Shown: positions 59,451 to 64,000 of the stretch, piece by piece | Layout: every line of letters starts with the position of its first letter | How positions within the stretch are numbered: position 1 is the first letter of the stretch | NCBI GenBank assembly: GCA_002499085.1 | Contig: DAKD01000027.1 | Span: 12,324-76,323 of the forward strand | Source: Methanomassiliicoccales archaeon UBA280 | Lineage (GTDB): Archaea; Thermoplasmatota; Thermoplasmata; SG8-5 | DNA length: 64,000 bases | Direction of reading: 5' to 3' | Position numbers and translations under genes: made by a program | The notes under the pieces: model-generated | The model's input: only the letters and a program-made list of their open reading frames with translations | Database searches by the model: none | Told to the model about the DNA's origin: nothing

Positions 59451-59508
59451 AGGCCCATCCGTTAAGGGCAACTAACTCACATAGTATTTATATTTATCGT
59501 TGATTGCG

Positions 59509-59525
59509 GCGTTGCACCTAAAGTC
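59509..59525. repeat. left terminal inverted repeat
   Basis: See the mobile element entry. It is followed by subterminal GACCYTAAAGTC copies at 59532-59543 and 59552-59563. Confidence 0.8.
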
Positions 59526-59561
59526 GCGTTTGACCCTAAAGTCGGGATTCTGACCTTAAAG

Positions 59562-60401
59562 TCATAAAGTGTCTTTGAAAACGAGTGGTTTCTTTGGTGT
59601 TGCGGTTTTTGGTTCATCCCAACGCCCGAATTTTCTTGATGCCATTCCATAAACAAAAACATTATCCCTATAAATGCAATTGAAATTTATTTTCTCAAAC
59701 AATATCTTCATGATTCGCGGCTTAATCATATTGAATCGAATTTCCCGATAGTGTGTTGCACTATCATTGCGCATCTCTATCTCTCCGATGTTTAGCCCTT
59801 TGTAGCGCAATAAAACTTTCTGCTCAGGCATTTGACCCGCTGAAATTGCTCGGGAATTACAAACTTCCATATATTCCCCAAATAAATCGACCACGTCTTT
59901 ATAATAAAACACATGAAAAGCCCCGTCATGTTTTACAGTTAAATAATCTACTTCACCGCCATTAAAAATGGATTTGTTTATGAACGCCCTTAGTCTTGCT
60001 TTGTTTTGGAGTCTTTCGGCAAGTTGTCGCATAGGGGTTCTTAACCTCTCTTTGCTTGGTATTTTATCTAAAATATATTCATCATACGTTGCTGGAAAAG
60101 AATTAATGCACTCTATTAGTAAACCGCCTATCCCGTTCATTACTGTAAAGGCATCGTCGTGTTCAAATCTCCCCAAACCATAAAGAAAAATCTGCCATTT
60201 TGATTTGCCACTTTTAACGGAGTGCGCATCACCAGACGGGTCTATTACGTCTTTTTTGGCTTTTATGTCGTTTTTGTAATCGTGCTCTAAACCAATTGAC
60301 AAAGCAAACTCTAAAGCATCATCATGCCCTCTTTGGCGATACGCCCTGGCATCCTCCGAAGTTGACGCTCTTGTTTTTTTAGGCTTTACGGCATTTTCCA
60401 T
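59562..60401 (-). CDS. putative type II restriction endonuclease (partner of the adjacent methyltransferase)
   Basis: 279-aa AT-rich ORF whose start overlaps the methyltransferase stop by 16 nt. It shows no recognisable family by eye. A possible PD-(D/E)xK-like stretch is DVIDPSGDAHSVKSGK. The call rests mainly on gene context. Confidence 0.5.
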   Translation of the reverse strand: MENAVKPKKTRASTSEDARAYRQRGHDDALEFALSIGLEHDYKNDIKAKKDVIDPSGDAHSVKSGKSKWQIFLYGLGRFEHDDAFTVMNGIGGLLIECINSFPATYDEYILDKIPSKERLRTPMRQLAERLQNKARLRAFINKSIFNGGEVDYLTVKHDGAFHVFYYKDVVDLFGEYMEVCNSRAISAGQMPEQKVLLRYKGLNIGEIEMRNDSATHYREIRFNMIKPRIMKILFEKINFNCIYRDNVFVYGMASRKFGRWDEPKTATPKKPLVFKDTL

Positions 60402-61378
60402 ATTATCAATTCATGTGATTTTTTCACATGACTTCCTCCGTTTCCATTCGCCCTATTTACCCCGATTCTCGTATCGCCCTGGCCGAATGTGTATTGCCAT
60501 TCAGGGGTTATAAATTCGAAATCTTTATACCATTCTCGAATCGTGGAACAGTCGTTGTATGACAGTACGAATCCGCCTTTGTGTTCTAATAGGTAGTCCC
60601 TAAGCAACTCGTGCTTAAAACCCTTATGATGCACCGGGAAATTGCGGTGCGGATATAATCCAATAAACATTTTACTATCGCCACCGAGGAAATATGGTGG
60701 GTCACAATACATGAAGTCGTTTTTGTGTTTTGACATGATTGTTTCAAACGATGCGCATTTAACATCTAAATTACCTACTCTGAATTTACGAACCTTGTCT
60801 ATTAACGTTGCGTATCTTTTTTCATCTAAATATATATCGGATGGCCACCCTAAGAAATGTGGCCCGTATGACGTGTTATGATTGAAATAATACAATGCGG
60901 CCAGGTCTAATTTATTTGTAATCATTTCTTTTTTGTCCCAATGCAACTTCAATATGCTTTTAATCCTCTTAAATTCGTCCCTTGTTGGTTCAAATTCTCG
61001 CAATCTTTTGTAAAGTGCTTCGGGGTGCTTTATCTGCTCACCCCAGTAATTAACTAATATGTCAAATATTTCATAGCCTTGGACTTCCATCCCTAATTCT
61101 TTTGCGCACGCTATTTCAACAGAGCCAGCACCAAAAAACGGCGATACCAGTTTACTTGTGTTATCTGGGATATGTTCCACAATCATACCAACAGCCAGAC
61201 TTTTACCCCCAGGGTATCTAAGCGGAGATTCGACATATCTGCGATATTTCATTTTGCCTTTTATGGGCGTTAGCCTCTTTAGAAATGCTTTTTTTCTTTC
61301 TAAAATTGTTCCGGTCGTTCCAAACTTCGTTTCAGCATTCATATTTTCGCTCTTTCCTGACATTTGGTCAATCCCCAA
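60386..61378 (-). CDS. D12-class (Dam-like) N6-adenine DNA methyltransferase
   Basis: Supporting sequence: LRYPGGKS, SAM-binding motif SPFFGAGS, and catalytic motif YCDPPY. Confidence 0.85.
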   Translation of the reverse strand: MGIDQMSGKSENMNAETKFGTTGTILERKKAFLKRLTPIKGKMKYRRYVESPLRYPGGKSLAVGMIVEHIPDNTSKLVSPFFGAGSVEIACAKELGMEVQGYEIFDILVNYWGEQIKHPEALYKRLREFEPTRDEFKRIKSILKLHWDKKEMITNKLDLAALYYFNHNTSYGPHFLGWPSDIYLDEKRYATLIDKVRKFRVGNLDVKCASFETIMSKHKNDFMYCDPPYFLGGDSKMFIGLYPHRNFPVHHKGFKHELLRDYLLEHKGGFVLSYNDCSTIREWYKDFEFITPEWQYTFGQGDTRIGVNRANGNGGSHVKKSHELIIWKMP

Positions 61379-61559
61379 CTTCTCGAATCCTGAGAAAACT
61401 CTTTCCGTCCTCGCTCTCGATAATCTCCCATCTCAACACACTGCCTTTTTTCAAGCCCATCTGACTTATGATAAACGCGGGTATGGTAGTCCTATAAGAA
61501 GTTCCCTTAGAGGTCGCCGAATGTACTATTGTTTCGTTGGCACTTGGATTTCTTGGCAA
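61368..61559 (-). CDS. AbrB/SpoVT-fold small DNA-binding protein, candidate controller of the R-M operon
   Basis: 63 aa. The stretch TTIPAFIISQMGLKKGSVLRWEII fits the swapped-hairpin AbrB/MazE pattern (xxIPxxxxxxxGLxxGdxvxw). Its stop overlaps the methyltransferase start by 11 nt. Confidence 0.55.
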   Translation of the reverse strand: MPRNPSANETIVHSATSKGTSYRTTIPAFIISQMGLKKGSVLRWEIIESEDGKSFLRIREVGD

Positions 61560-61702
61560 TCAATCACCGAACATACATGGCTTATCGAGTATATAATCTT
61601 TATCTGTCTTTCTTGTTTGGTCAAAATTTACCTATTCATGGACAGAAAGAAAGACCGACATATTTATATAGTTAGTGTGCTTATAGGTAGATAAAGAGGT
61701 AG

Positions 61703-62962
61703 ATGAGATTGACAGAAAACATACTAAACTCGGACATAAGTGAGATAGAAATCGAACACGACGGCGTAAGCATCCCGTCATCGACCAGGCTTGAAAAGGC
61801 AATGAAAATACTGGAACTGGACGACCCGATACATGAGGTCGAACATGGTATTTTCACGGTCAAGAGTCAAAGCGGATACGGGCTTTACAAGGTTGAGGAT
61901 TCTGGCGAATGGAAGTGCAACTGCCCGGATTACATCACGCGCGGCGGGGAGTGCAAGCATATTCTGGCAACGAGGTATTATCTCGAAGTCCAGAGGGAAA
62001 CAATCACAGGCACAATATCCGAGAAAATCCCGATTGCGCCGAGCCAAGCATGGTCGGCATACAACAAAGCACAAGTCATGGAAGGCGAGATATTCGAGAA
62101 ATTACTCCGTGAATTGTGCGACACAATACCAGAGCCAGAGTATGAATTTGGCAGACCAACAATCCCAATCGCAGACCAAGTATTCTGCGCGGTCATGAAG
62201 TCTTACAGCATGATGTCCAGCCGAAGGGCGCACACGTTCCTGAGAGATGCGGAAAAGAACGGAACGCTTACCCATGCACCGCATTTCAACCAAGTTTCAA
62301 AGACCCTATTAAAGCGTGAGATAACGTCCGTATTGCAGAAATTGATAAGGAAATCCGCGATTCCACTGGCCAGCATCGAATCTGATTTTGCGATTGATTC
62401 CAGCGGGTTTTCAACGTCCAAGTTCAACGCTTATTGCGGCGCAAAGCATGGTGTAAAGAAAACCCACGACTGGATAAAGGCGCACATCTGCACCGGAGTA
62501 ATAACCAACGTAGTAACCGATGTAGTTATTACAGACGGGCATGGGGCTGATTCCCCGCAGTTCGAGGGATTGTTGAGGGGTACAGCCGAGTCCTTCGAGA
62601 TAAGCGAAGTATCCGCAGATAAAGCCTATTCATCAAGGCTTAACCACGATGTAGCCATTGAGGTCGGCGGTCAGGCGTTGATTCCTTTCAAGAGTAATGC
62701 AAACGGGAAAAAGCAAGGCTCGAAGGCATGGAAAAATGCTTACCACTATTTCCAGTTGCACCGGGATGAGTTCAACGCCAGATACCACAAGAGGTCGAAT
62801 GTTGAAACTACCTTTGGCGCGATGAAGGCCAAGTTCGGCGAGAACCTCAAATCTAAGAAGTGGGTTGCCCAAGGTAATGAATTACTTTGTAAGATACTGG
62901 CCTACAATATCACCGTGCTAATCGCCCAGATGTATGAGTCCGGCATCGAGCCGGACTTCTAA
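61703..62962 (+). CDS. DDE transposase (IS4/IS5-type catalytic core) with N-terminal SWIM zinc finger
   Basis: The SWIM motif is WKCNCPDYITRGGECKHILA (CxCx(n)CxH). The DDE core is FAIDSSGF ... VSADKAYSS ... and YHKRSNVETTFGAMKAKFG (the Y-x2-R-x3-E-x6-K signature). Confidence 0.8.
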   Translation: MRLTENILNSDISEIEIEHDGVSIPSSTRLEKAMKILELDDPIHEVEHGIFTVKSQSGYGLYKVEDSGEWKCNCPDYITRGGECKHILATRYYLEVQRETITGTISEKIPIAPSQAWSAYNKAQVMEGEIFEKLLRELCDTIPEPEYEFGRPTIPIADQVFCAVMKSYSMMSSRRAHTFLRDAEKNGTLTHAPHFNQVSKTLLKREITSVLQKLIRKSAIPLASIESDFAIDSSGFSTSKFNAYCGAKHGVKKTHDWIKAHICTGVITNVVTDVVITDGHGADSPQFEGLLRGTAESFEISEVSADKAYSSRLNHDVAIEVGGQALIPFKSNANGKKQGSKAWKNAYHYFQLHRDEFNARYHKRSNVETTFGAMKAKFGENLKSKKWVAQGNELLCKILAYNITVLIAQMYESGIEPDF

Positions 62963-63195
62963 TTTAATTTTGATTTGTTCATCATATCTGGTTCTTTTTT
63001 AAGACAAAAAAGACACGGTAATTTATACTTCATTTCACTCGATTCTAAAAAATTAATAGCCTCATTCTTTGTTTCAAACGAGTGCCATGTGCCATGTTTA
63101 TCATCAATCGGCGCACCCATTTTTTTTATTTCTTTACATCCTTCAATATGCAACCGCCCAGTACTTGTTAATTTGTCTAAATATACCCAATACAT
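62959..63195 (-). CDS. small Cys-containing hypothetical protein (transposon cargo)
   Basis: 78-aa AT-rich ORF (MYWVYLDKLTSTGRLHIEGC...LPCLFC). It is convergent with the transposase and overlaps it by 4 nt. No family was recognised. Confidence 0.35.
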   Translation of the reverse strand: MYWVYLDKLTSTGRLHIEGCKEIKKMGAPIDDKHGTWHSFETKNEAINFLESSEMKYKLPCLFCLKKEPDMMNKSKLN

Positions 63196-63295
63196 AGATT
63201 TCCACCTAAATTCAATATGCTCTGAGAGTACTTAATATTTAAGCTGAAACCGACCCTAAAGTATCGTTTCTGACCCAGAAGTAGCCATTTCAGAG

Positions 63296-63312
63296 GACTT
63301 TAAGTGCAACGC
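63296..63312. repeat. right terminal inverted repeat
   Basis: See the mobile element entry. Subterminal GACCCTAAAGTA (63252-63263) and GACCCAGAAGTA (63272-63283) precede it. Confidence 0.8.
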
Positions 63313-63432
63313 TGTTGATTGCCGTAATATTTTCAATATGTAATATAAAAATATGATGGGTATGTCGCAGAAATGAGGTCAAATATATGGTTTCAAAAAG
63401 TTTTATATGGAAGTTACTGCCTTGTGTTCATT

Positions 63433-64000
63433 GTGAAGCCCAGAAACGAGACTGTGACTGATCTGCATGGCATGCTTCTGAGGGCCGGTTTTGCCGCTTC
63501 GGACCCCAAAGACCTTGTCCACTCGGGGTTCGACATAGTCGCCAGAAGGGACCAGGTCATCCTTGTCATCAAAGTTGTAACCAATGCGAACTCCCTCAAC
63601 GAAGAGATGCTCACCGGGATGAAGACGCTCTCCAACGCAGTAAGGGGTTCCGCGATCCTAATCGCCCTTAAATCCGGAACAGAACCGATTGAAGACGGCG
63701 TCGTATACACAAGGACCGGTATACCGATGATTTCTCTGGGTACGCTGAGAGACCTCATTGAGGATGGCATCCCCCCGATAGTTTATGCGGCCAGCGGCGG
63801 CTTCTATGTCGAGGTGGACTCGGAGGTCCTGAGGAAGGCAAGGGACGGGGGGCTTTCTCTGGGCGACATTGCGGAAATGGCCGGGGTGACCAGGCGCACG
63901 ATAAAGATGTACGAGGACGGGATGAGCGCGAAACTGGATGTGGCTCTTCGGATTGAGAAGGGCCTTGGAAAGGAGATCATATTGCCTCTGGACCCGCTGT
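63433..64000 (+). CDS. conserved archaeal HTH (Xre-type) regulator with N-terminal nuclease-like domain (COG1395-like), 3' end outside window
   Basis: My own translation, because the ORF is absent from the track (it has no stop before the window end): VKPRNETVTDLHGMLLRAGF..GFDIVARRD...GIPMISLGTLRDLI...GLSLGDIAEMAGVTRRTIKMYEDG. The start is uncertain: GTG 63433 or ATG 63373. Confidence 0.65.
   Translation, partial: MKPRNETVTDLHGMLLRAGFAASDPKDLVHSGFDIVARRDQVILVIKVVTNANSLNEEMLTGMKTLSNAVRGSAILIALKSGTEPIEDGVVYTRTGIPMISLGTLRDLIEDGIPPIVYAASGGFYVEVDSEVLRKARDGGLSLGDIAEMAGVTRRTIKMYEDGMSAKLDVALRIEKGLGKEIILPLDPL

Follow-up and report, generated by a model that had tools for sequence, protein, structure and literature searches.

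We analyzed a 64,000-nucleotide (nt) stretch from the genome of Methanomassiliicoccales archaeon UBA280 (GCA_002499085.1, contig DAKD01000027.1, positions 12,324 to 76,323), which we call the window. As read from the sequence, window positions 59508-63313 form a 3,806-bp element that has terminal inverted repeats (TIRs) and is flanked by two copies of a 9-bp sequence. The element encodes a transposase, an N6-adenine DNA methyltransferase (M), a 279 amino acid (aa) partner protein (R), an AbrB-like protein, and one further small open reading frame (ORF). It is very probably a unit transposon with a single transposase (a "transporter IS" or tIS, IS being insertion sequence) that is IS903-like, carries the M-R pair, and belongs to a cargo-carrying archaeal family. 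Its order is left end, cargo slot 1, AbrB-like gene (minus strand), a predicted divergent promoter region, transposase gene (plus strand), cargo slot 2, and right end. In window coordinates, the features are:

59499..59507, no strand: left copy of the target-site duplication, GTTGATTGC, present as a single copy at the empty sites of sister genomes L100 and L102
59508..59525, plus strand: left 18-bp TIR, GGCGTTGCACCTAAAGTC, identical to both ends of the related element L009
59514..59563, plus strand: three direct 12-nt repeats of the left end, at 59514-25 (GCACCTAAAGTC), 59532-43 (GACCCTAAAGTC) and 59552-63 (GACCTTAAAGTC)
59562..60401, minus strand: 279-aa gene (R), putative restriction endonuclease, following M and overlapping its end by 16 nt
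60386..61363, minus strand: predicted D12-class N6-adenine DNA methyltransferase (M) with FFGAGS and DPPY motifs
61368..61559, minus strand: 63-aa SpoVT/AbrB(MazE)-like ORF, with a weak PF04014 match and a conserved position
61560..61702, no strand: AT-rich divergent intergenic region between the AbrB-like gene and the transposase gene
61703..62962, plus strand: 419-aa transposase, DDE_Tnp_1 with an N-terminal CxC...CxH finger
62959..63195, minus strand: 78-aa ORF in slot 2, without a family match in Pfam, NCBIfam, PADLOC, or PHROGs
63252..63283, plus strand: two inner right-end repeats, at 63252-63 (GACCCTAAAGTA) and 63272-83 (GACCCAGAAGTA), in the same absolute orientation as the left-end repeats
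63296..63313, minus strand: right 18-bp TIR, AGCGTTGCACTTAAAGTC when read inward
63314..63322, no strand: right copy of the target-site duplication, GTTGATTGC, placed by the sequence and by the empty site

The left and right TIRs match at 16 of 18 positions; the left opens with GGCGTTGCAC... and the right with AGCGTTGCAC.... The original prediction, made from the letters of the window alone, had paired GCGTTGCACCTAAAGTC at 59509-59525 with its reverse complement, carrying one mismatch, at 63296-63312. A search of the 64-kb window that allowed up to three mismatches returned just those two copies, with 0.16 expected by chance, and bears this pairing out. The directly repeated 9-mer was also correctly recognized, but it had been placed 1 nt outside each end. 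The related element L009 (comparison loci carry numbers of this kind) has the same outline and a perfect 18/18 TIR that is abutted by its own 9-bp duplication, GGGAAATAA, so the supposed gap is the outermost TIR base and the duplication abuts the window element. Each end thus described consists of the 18-bp TIR and two inner copies of the 12-nt repeat, and the 12-nt repeats are presumed to be transposase-binding sites. A degenerate extra copy, TTCCACCTAAATTC, lies at 63200-63213, just upstream of the 78-aa ORF and 40 bp inside the inner right-end repeats; it matches the left terminal repeat at 12 of 14 positions and may represent either a fourth binding site or the relic of an end.

The element occupies the divergent spacer between a GT2 glycosyltransferase gene and a helix-turn-helix (HTH)/PDDEXK_19 gene. 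GT2 protein orthologues place the host among the Thermoplasmata, and through them we located the empty site in two sister genomes, L100 (GCA_964354755.1; GT2 91% identical) and L102 (GT2 93% identical). In both, the GT2 and HTH/PDDEXK_19 genes are adjacent and divergent, with a 165-bp spacer that contains ...TCGTTGATTGCCGTAATATT... and in which one GTTGATTGC is followed directly by the right flank of the window, CGTAATATT. This matches, to the base, the rejoined sequence predicted for deletion of the element with one 9-mer copy; the search for it in sister genomes had been proposed along with that prediction. We also scanned a metagenome collection for the empty site with an exact 22-mer, which gave two contigs, both chance matches in unrelated sequence. 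Around these matches (L098:1415-1436 and L099:6329-6350), the 180 nt shown do not differ between the two contigs and are unrelated to the window. The insertion falls between AT-rich, TATA-like stretches that each remain attached to their flanking gene, and both stretches may serve as promoters. The empty sites, the single transposase gene, and a left end of only 55 bp together identify a transposon insertion, not an IS beside restriction-modification (R-M) genes and not a composite transposon. As had been proposed, the TIRs enclose the methyltransferase and its partner; these genes are not neighbors of a separate IS.

The transposase matches DDE_Tnp_1 (PF01609) with an E-value of 3e-23. Its Pfam SWIM match is below threshold (16.7 bits vs 19.6), but the SWIM-type finger residues (C72, C74, C84, and H86, CxC...CxH) are invariant in an alignment with 31 relatives (alignment A1), and the description of the protein as a SWIM/DDE transposase holds. 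Also invariant in this alignment are D232, D306, and E368, as well as Y361, R364, and K375; the protein shows the Y-(2)-R-(3)-E-(6)-K signature. The best NCBIfam model is IS5 (NF033579) at 136 bits, with 288 of 289 model positions aligned. The best IS4 model reaches 32 bits, and the IS4, IS1182, and ISNCY models all score far lower than IS5. In the plasmid collection the nearest relatives are IS903, IS903B, and ISAha2 (25-30% identity over residues 117-402). An IS903B copy that we read from a Klebsiella plasmid (L103) is 1,057 bp long and has the TIR GGCTTTGTTGAATAAATC; this 18-bp repeat begins with GGCTTTG, the same first 7 nt as the consensus of the archaeal family, GGCTTTGCACNTAAAGTC. We conclude that the transposase appears to be an intact IS5-family, IS903-like DDE enzyme to which a SWIM-type finger has been added. 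IS903 makes 9-bp target duplications. Given this relationship, the 9-bp duplication is IS5/IS903-like, and the earlier view that it is more IS4-like than IS5-like does not hold.

M belongs to the D12 class of methyltransferases (PF02086, E-value 8e-35) and matches the PADLOC model PDLC03281 MTase_II over its full length with 363 bits. Its start is placed at 61342, 61363, or 61378, depending on the gene caller. It had been called a Dam-class enzyme, a label we replace with D12 class: it scores 58 bits against the Dam family model TIGR00571, for which the cutoff is 114.85, and it is only remotely similar to Dam and DpnM in the PDB (about E 8e-9 to 4e-5), so GATC specificity cannot be assumed.

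The 279-aa protein has 1,045 homologues, the best 120 of which are 62-76% identical; those with named hosts come from Falkowbacteria, Magasanikbacteria, and Treponema. In all six other contexts, mostly bacterial, the homologue comes directly after a D12 methyltransferase of ~310-380 aa, and the stop and start codons of the two genes overlap or abut. These pairs sit between housekeeping genes with no transposase nearby, and their GC content is under that of their flanks in every one of the six loci. M is 63-66% identical to the methyltransferases that precede the R homologues in L003 and L007. M and the 279-aa gene therefore form a conserved two-gene module, whose pattern across the six loci is the behavior expected of a mobile type II R-M pair. 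The known relatives of the pair come from Patescibacteria and Treponema, and the comparisons suggest that the M-R cargo is of bacterial origin. We predict that M is translationally coupled to the 279-aa protein, for which the most probable role is that of the cognate type II restriction endonuclease. Searches of the PDB by sequence and by profile gave nothing meaningful for this protein. The original prediction had spoken of a complete R-M cassette. A methyltransferase with a conserved partner is indeed present; that the partner is a nuclease is something we infer, no nuclease signature or fold match having been found.

The stop codon of the 279-aa gene overlaps the boundary to the third left-end repeat; cargo and left end are thus tightly packed. 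The C-terminal tail of the protein (17 aa, window 59562-59615) is unique, and none of the 13 homologues shown has it; capture of the module may have changed the original 3' end of the gene. Two independent short-read assemblies (L016 from SRR1313287 and L017 from SRR1313285) both break at window 59929/59930, inside this gene; heterogeneity among strains or a shift in coverage over the low-GC cargo may be the reason. In two bacterial loci carrying the module, conserved small ORFs of 91 and 67 aa (L105:1698-1973 and L106:591-794, 80% identical to each other) lie directly upstream of M and overlap its start. It is possible that they encode the controller protein of that R-M family.

The AbrB-like ORF has a PF04014 match that is below threshold (21.2 bits vs 24.7). 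In iterative searches, its homologues adjoin the transposase gene, in divergent orientation, in 12 of ~70 loci that carry different cargo and whose transposases are 38-60% identical to that of the window. No homologue is present upstream of M in the six other M-R loci, and the GC content of the ORF is near that of the transposase gene and unlike that of M and R. The ORF is thus a backbone gene of the transposon in part of the family, outside the R-M module. The proposed three-gene operon becomes a two-gene M-R module downstream of a backbone gene; M and R, which lie on the same strand as the AbrB-like gene, may be co-transcribed with it. A role for the ORF as controller of the R-M operon was considered and ruled out, because elements with other cargo also have it beside their transposase gene; moreover, the bacterial M-R loci have small ORFs upstream of M that are unrelated to it. 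Most plausibly the protein would act as a regulator at the divergent promoter region, or else serve as an accessory DNA-binding protein. The intergenic region at 61560..61702 contains TATA-like boxes at about 61588-61595 and 61661-61668, and its assignment as a promoter region is likewise a prediction.

The interior of the element is AT-richer than its flanks, as first noted, but its GC content falls into three tiers and not two. To the left of the element (1-59498) the window has a GC fraction of 0.574, and the short right flank (63323-64000) has 0.513; the values within the element are 0.482 for the transposase gene, 0.448 for the AbrB-like ORF, 0.392 for M, 0.387 for R, and 0.312 for the 78-aa ORF.

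We next place the element among its relatives. We used the transposase alignment to scan prokaryotic genomes, one for each species, and obtained 80 loci, nearly all of them in archaeal metagenome-assembled genomes. The hosts include Methanothrix, Methanoregulaceae, Methanocellaceae, Methanocorpusculum, and Thermoplasmata/Methanomassiliicoccales, along with Halobacteriales, Micrarchaeota, Aenigmatarchaeota, and Woesearchaeota. Viral contigs gave just seven relatives, one of them bounded, so the family is not mainly virus-borne. To find element boundaries, we used a search anchored on the target duplication: the transposase had to be flanked by two identical 9-mers, and the sequences immediately internal to these had to match as inverted repeats at 13 or more of 18 positions. 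A calculation based on the binomial tail and the count of 9-mer pairs gives ~0.4 expected false positives over the 80 loci. This procedure bounded 37 elements with the family TIR, the window element among them. We excluded L066 and L068, two further hits that do not have the family TIR consensus and resemble chance matches. Removal of a tandem case and a duplicate locus left 35 non-redundant elements, which range from 2,386 to 9,986 bp (median 4,087).

The family TIR consensus GGCTTTGCACNTAAAGTC opens with GGCTTTGCAC.... Of the 37 aligned elements, most show the layout with three repeats per end. The inner pair at the right end is oriented as the left-end copies are, and the terminal copy alone is inverted. 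These asymmetric ends are more like those of Tn7 or Mu than like simple IS ends. No target-sequence preference is evident among the 9-bp duplications of the family. The tandem case (L044:101-5070, on a Methanothrix contig) consists of two 2,462-bp copies that are 100% identical, each with a 217-aa cargo gene and a transposase gene. The same 9-mer, TCATGCAGA, stands between the copies, and the second is followed by the start of a third. The multimer may be real, or the assembler may have wrapped around a repeat or a circular form.

Every bounded copy of the archaeal family contains passenger genes. Across the 35 elements, the distance from the left end to the transposase match is 1,094-5,984 bp and that from the transposase to the right end is 44-5,082 bp. 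Nine more loci were found through the left-end signature (TIR with direct inner repeat, the duplication not being used), and in all of them the signature lies at least 1.3 kb upstream of the transposase match. There is no bare IS among the 35 bounded elements and the nine left-end loci. The idea that a bare IS of ~1.5 kb is hidden within the window element was also rejected, as the window holds no further TIR-like site with up to three mismatches; likewise, no left-end signature of the family occurs less than 1.1 kb from a transposase match (the minimum being 1,094 bp).

The cargo is highly diverse: of its 158 ORFs, 111 do not fall into a cluster with a cargo ORF from any other element. Pfam matches among the 102 larger cargo proteins include N6_Mtase (5), N6_N4_Mtase (3), Methylase_S (3), and Endonuc-BglII (2), with further matches to BsoBI, XamI, EcoRI methylase, Eco57I, HSDR_N, GmrSD_N, SLFN/AlbA_2, DUF4145, PIN, NYN, and SDH protease. 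GmrSD_N with HNH and GIY-YIG also occur among the family cargo matches, and the PADLOC matches are mainly to type I, II, and IIG R-M models. Slot 1 holds methyltransferase-nuclease pairs in L039 (BsoBI family), L067 (GIY-YIG), and L071 (XamI family), and a GmrSD_N-HNH protein with an EcoRI-type methyltransferase in L069; the cargo of L043 is a type I-like set. A protein with the (D/N/S)PP(Y/F/W/H) methylase motif is encoded in 11 of the 37 elements. In elements without this motif, 30 larger cargo proteins were screened singly, and 22 of them have no Pfam family. R-M and other defense-type modules are thus frequent passengers of the archaeal family.

Close relatives share a backbone and differ in cargo. 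The L009 transposase is 92% identical to that of the window (85% at the DNA level), and homology between the two elements is restricted to three segments: 59508-59562 (the 55-bp left end, 96%), 61731-62971 (transposase), and 63252-63312 (the 61-bp right end). The interval between left end and transposase is unrelated; in L009 it encodes DUF6978 and DUF1828 proteins that match the PADLOC candidate PDC-M24A. L032, L036, L039, and L043 have left ends that are 90-96% identical and transposases that are 78-84% identical, with unrelated cargo. To the right of the transposase, the window element has a 280-bp stretch with the 78-aa ORF, and in L009 only 17 bp separate the transposase from the right end. 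In L011, whose transposase is 72% identical, this position is taken by two different small genes, and one of these resembles a GIY-YIG homing endonuclease. These differences, along with the unrelated slot 1 contents, indicate two cargo slots. The cargo mosaics would be explained if family members recombine with one another in the transposase gene and the conserved ends.

Two of these elements, L032 and L036, lie on one 2.43-Mb Methanoregulaceae contig (CAVTTL010000001.1). Their left ends are ~90% and their transposases 84% identical, and they carry unrelated cargo and have different 9-bp duplications, an instance of cargo diversity within a single host. Homologous two-gene cargo modules, in turn, recur with diverged transposases in other genomes and at different target sites (L032/L037, L036/L051/L057, and L072/L074).

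Several observations weigh against the reading of the window element as an IS903-like transposon that brought its M-R cargo along. The right TIR is mismatched at its terminal base, which might have lowered the present-day mobility of the element, and the transposase falls 4 bits under the NCBIfam IS5 cutoff of 140. Only one copy of the exact element is known: all seven contigs with the exact transposase, and all eleven with the exact GT2 gene, represent the same locus at 100% identity, with no second insertion or empty site among them. With one known locus, co-transposition of the M-R cargo has not been directly seen. That single locus fits a sequence of events in which the transposon landed first and the M-R module entered slot 1 later, or replaced what was there, by recombination or by its own mobility. 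The exchange of cargo on nearly identical backbones elsewhere in the family speaks for such a history, as does the ability of the M-R pair to insert alone, without a transposase, between bacterial housekeeping genes. We nevertheless regard later entry as unlikely: slot 1 is already filled in every bounded family member, the three sets of recurring modules named above travel with a transposase to different sites, and the cargo borders of the window element show no footprint in the form of extra repeats or a nested duplication. A chance arrangement of TIRs and 9-mers, or a composite of an IS beside an R-M island or of two IS remnants, has practically no probability left. The distance of 2.2 kb between the left end and the transposase is what could be said for it. 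The base-precise empty site in two sister genomes effectively refutes it, and the low chance expectations (0.16 TIR matches in the window and ~0.4 false positives in the duplication-anchored search of 80 loci) and the identical end architecture of 35 bounded elements point the same way. We also found no second transposase or transposase remnant in the window element; a composite transposon is ruled out by the one transposase gene and by a left end with just 55 bp of backbone.

The function of the 279-aa protein is a separate matter. It has no family match in Pfam, NCBIfam, PADLOC, or PHROGs. An AlphaFold model (predicted local distance difference test 83.4, predicted template modeling score 0.80) found no match in the PDB with Foldseek (best E-value 0.09), and its neighbors in BFVD are solely uncharacterized viral proteins from cyanophage and marine viruses (E 6e-5 to 6e-4). 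These results count against a restriction enzyme and would suit a specificity or regulatory partner, or some other methylation-linked effector, with M as an orphan or accessory methyltransferase. We hold this to be rather unlikely. The order of M then partner is strict and comes with overlapping stop and start codons in all six other loci, the pair is spread in a patchy manner over bacterial groups and the window archaeon at 62-76% identity, its GC content is below that of the flanks everywhere, and the match of M to the PADLOC model for type II methyltransferases is full-length. Restriction enzymes of type II typically have no detectable sequence similarity to one another.

For the preferred reading, a single-transposase unit transposon with its M-R cargo, we propose the following mechanism. 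Slot 1 would have been filled by a horizontally acquired, low-GC two-gene module made up of M and its 279-aa partner. The transposase, by its relationship to IS903, would recognize the terminal 18 bp and catalyze DDE transposition, and it may bind the inner repeats as well, probably through its extra zinc-finger region. The insertion itself is shown: the element entered the 165-bp spacer between the GT2 and HTH genes through a staggered cut, which duplicated 9 bp. From what is known of R-M biology (e.g., PMC2853133, PMC3874152), the cargo may protect the host against foreign DNA and may stabilize the insertion through post-segregational killing. The original prediction held that one recent event delivered the whole module. 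A bona fide insertion with M and R inside the TIRs is confirmed; delivery in a single event is likely, and no second copy with the same cargo is known.

The product of the right-hand neighbor gene (63388-64000, continuing at L001:7671-8666) is 331 aa long and matches PDDEXK_19 and, weakly, HTH_3. The start codon of this gene is 66 bp downstream of the insertion, and the orthologue in an empty-site genome is 311 aa long. Rfam and tRNA scans of the window gave no matches.

Features in common with IS903 and IS903B are a DDE_Tnp_1 transposase in which the Y-R-E-K signature is present, an 18-bp TIR opening with GGCTTTG, and a 9-bp duplication. It differs in several respects. IS903B is a single-gene IS of 1,057 bp, whereas the window element has four further ORFs in 3,806 bp and the family spans 2.4-10 kb. 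The window transposase has an extra N-terminal zinc-finger region of ~115 aa. The family ends have two additional inner repeats each and are asymmetric, some members have a divergent AbrB-like gene, passengers are always present, and the hosts are archaeal.

The concept of the tIS or unit transposon, in which one transposase, TIRs, and a target duplication enclose passenger genes, has been described (10.1101/2021.05.26.445724). The window element is alike in that a TIR pair and a duplication enclose the transposase and passengers, and in having an empty site. In tIS, passengers occur on occasional derivatives of bare IS and confer antibiotic resistance, whereas in the archaeal family they are family-wide and of the defense type. 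Tn7-like elements with defense cargo (Benler et al. 2021, PMC8649781) also have a conserved core, asymmetric ends with multiple repeats, and variable cargo rich in defense genes. Those elements use TnsABC with target selectors, are site-specific, and are much larger, whereas the archaeal family has a single IS903-like transposase. Bacterial R-M units with inverted repeats, an 8-bp duplication, and an empty site in a sister genome were reported by Furuta, Abe and Kobayashi 2010 (PMC2853133). Nearly all of these lack an internal transposase gene, the one in the single exception is likely inactivated, and no archaeal case survived the screen; in contrast, the window element is autonomous and archaeal. 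Our literature search, which did not cover ISfinder, TnCentral, or REBASE, found no earlier account of an archaeal family that is IS903-like and SWIM-bearing and in which cargo is always present. It also returned very few reports of archaeal cargo-carrying transposons, in contrast to the well documented bacterial ones (Tn3, Tn7, tIS). The archaeal transposon family is apparently undescribed.

A broader reading, which we consider possible but on balance doubtful, is that this undescribed family derives from IS903 and consists of dedicated shuttles for defense genes. The conserved chassis would comprise the SWIM-DDE transposase, three asymmetrically arranged repeats per end, and an optional AbrB-like regulator. 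It would offer one or two cassette-like slots whose contents are swapped at a fixed border next to the third left-end repeat, modules would be imported from bacteria, and the 279-aa protein would be an enzyme with a new fold. If this is so, the cargo genes without a known family would represent new archaeal defense systems.

The family is a compact, one-enzyme type of archaeal transposon, found also in DPANN lineages, with passengers in each bounded copy. It offers a concrete route by which defense genes may move within and between archaeal genomes, including an apparent transfer from bacteria to archaea. The cargo slots provide a way to find new archaeal defense systems through guilt by position. 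The 279-aa family, with more than 1,000 members, a confident structural model, and no solved neighbor, is a good target for the discovery of restriction enzymes. A single-protein transposon that has defined ends and tolerates 1-8 kb of cargo could also become a genetic tool for archaea.

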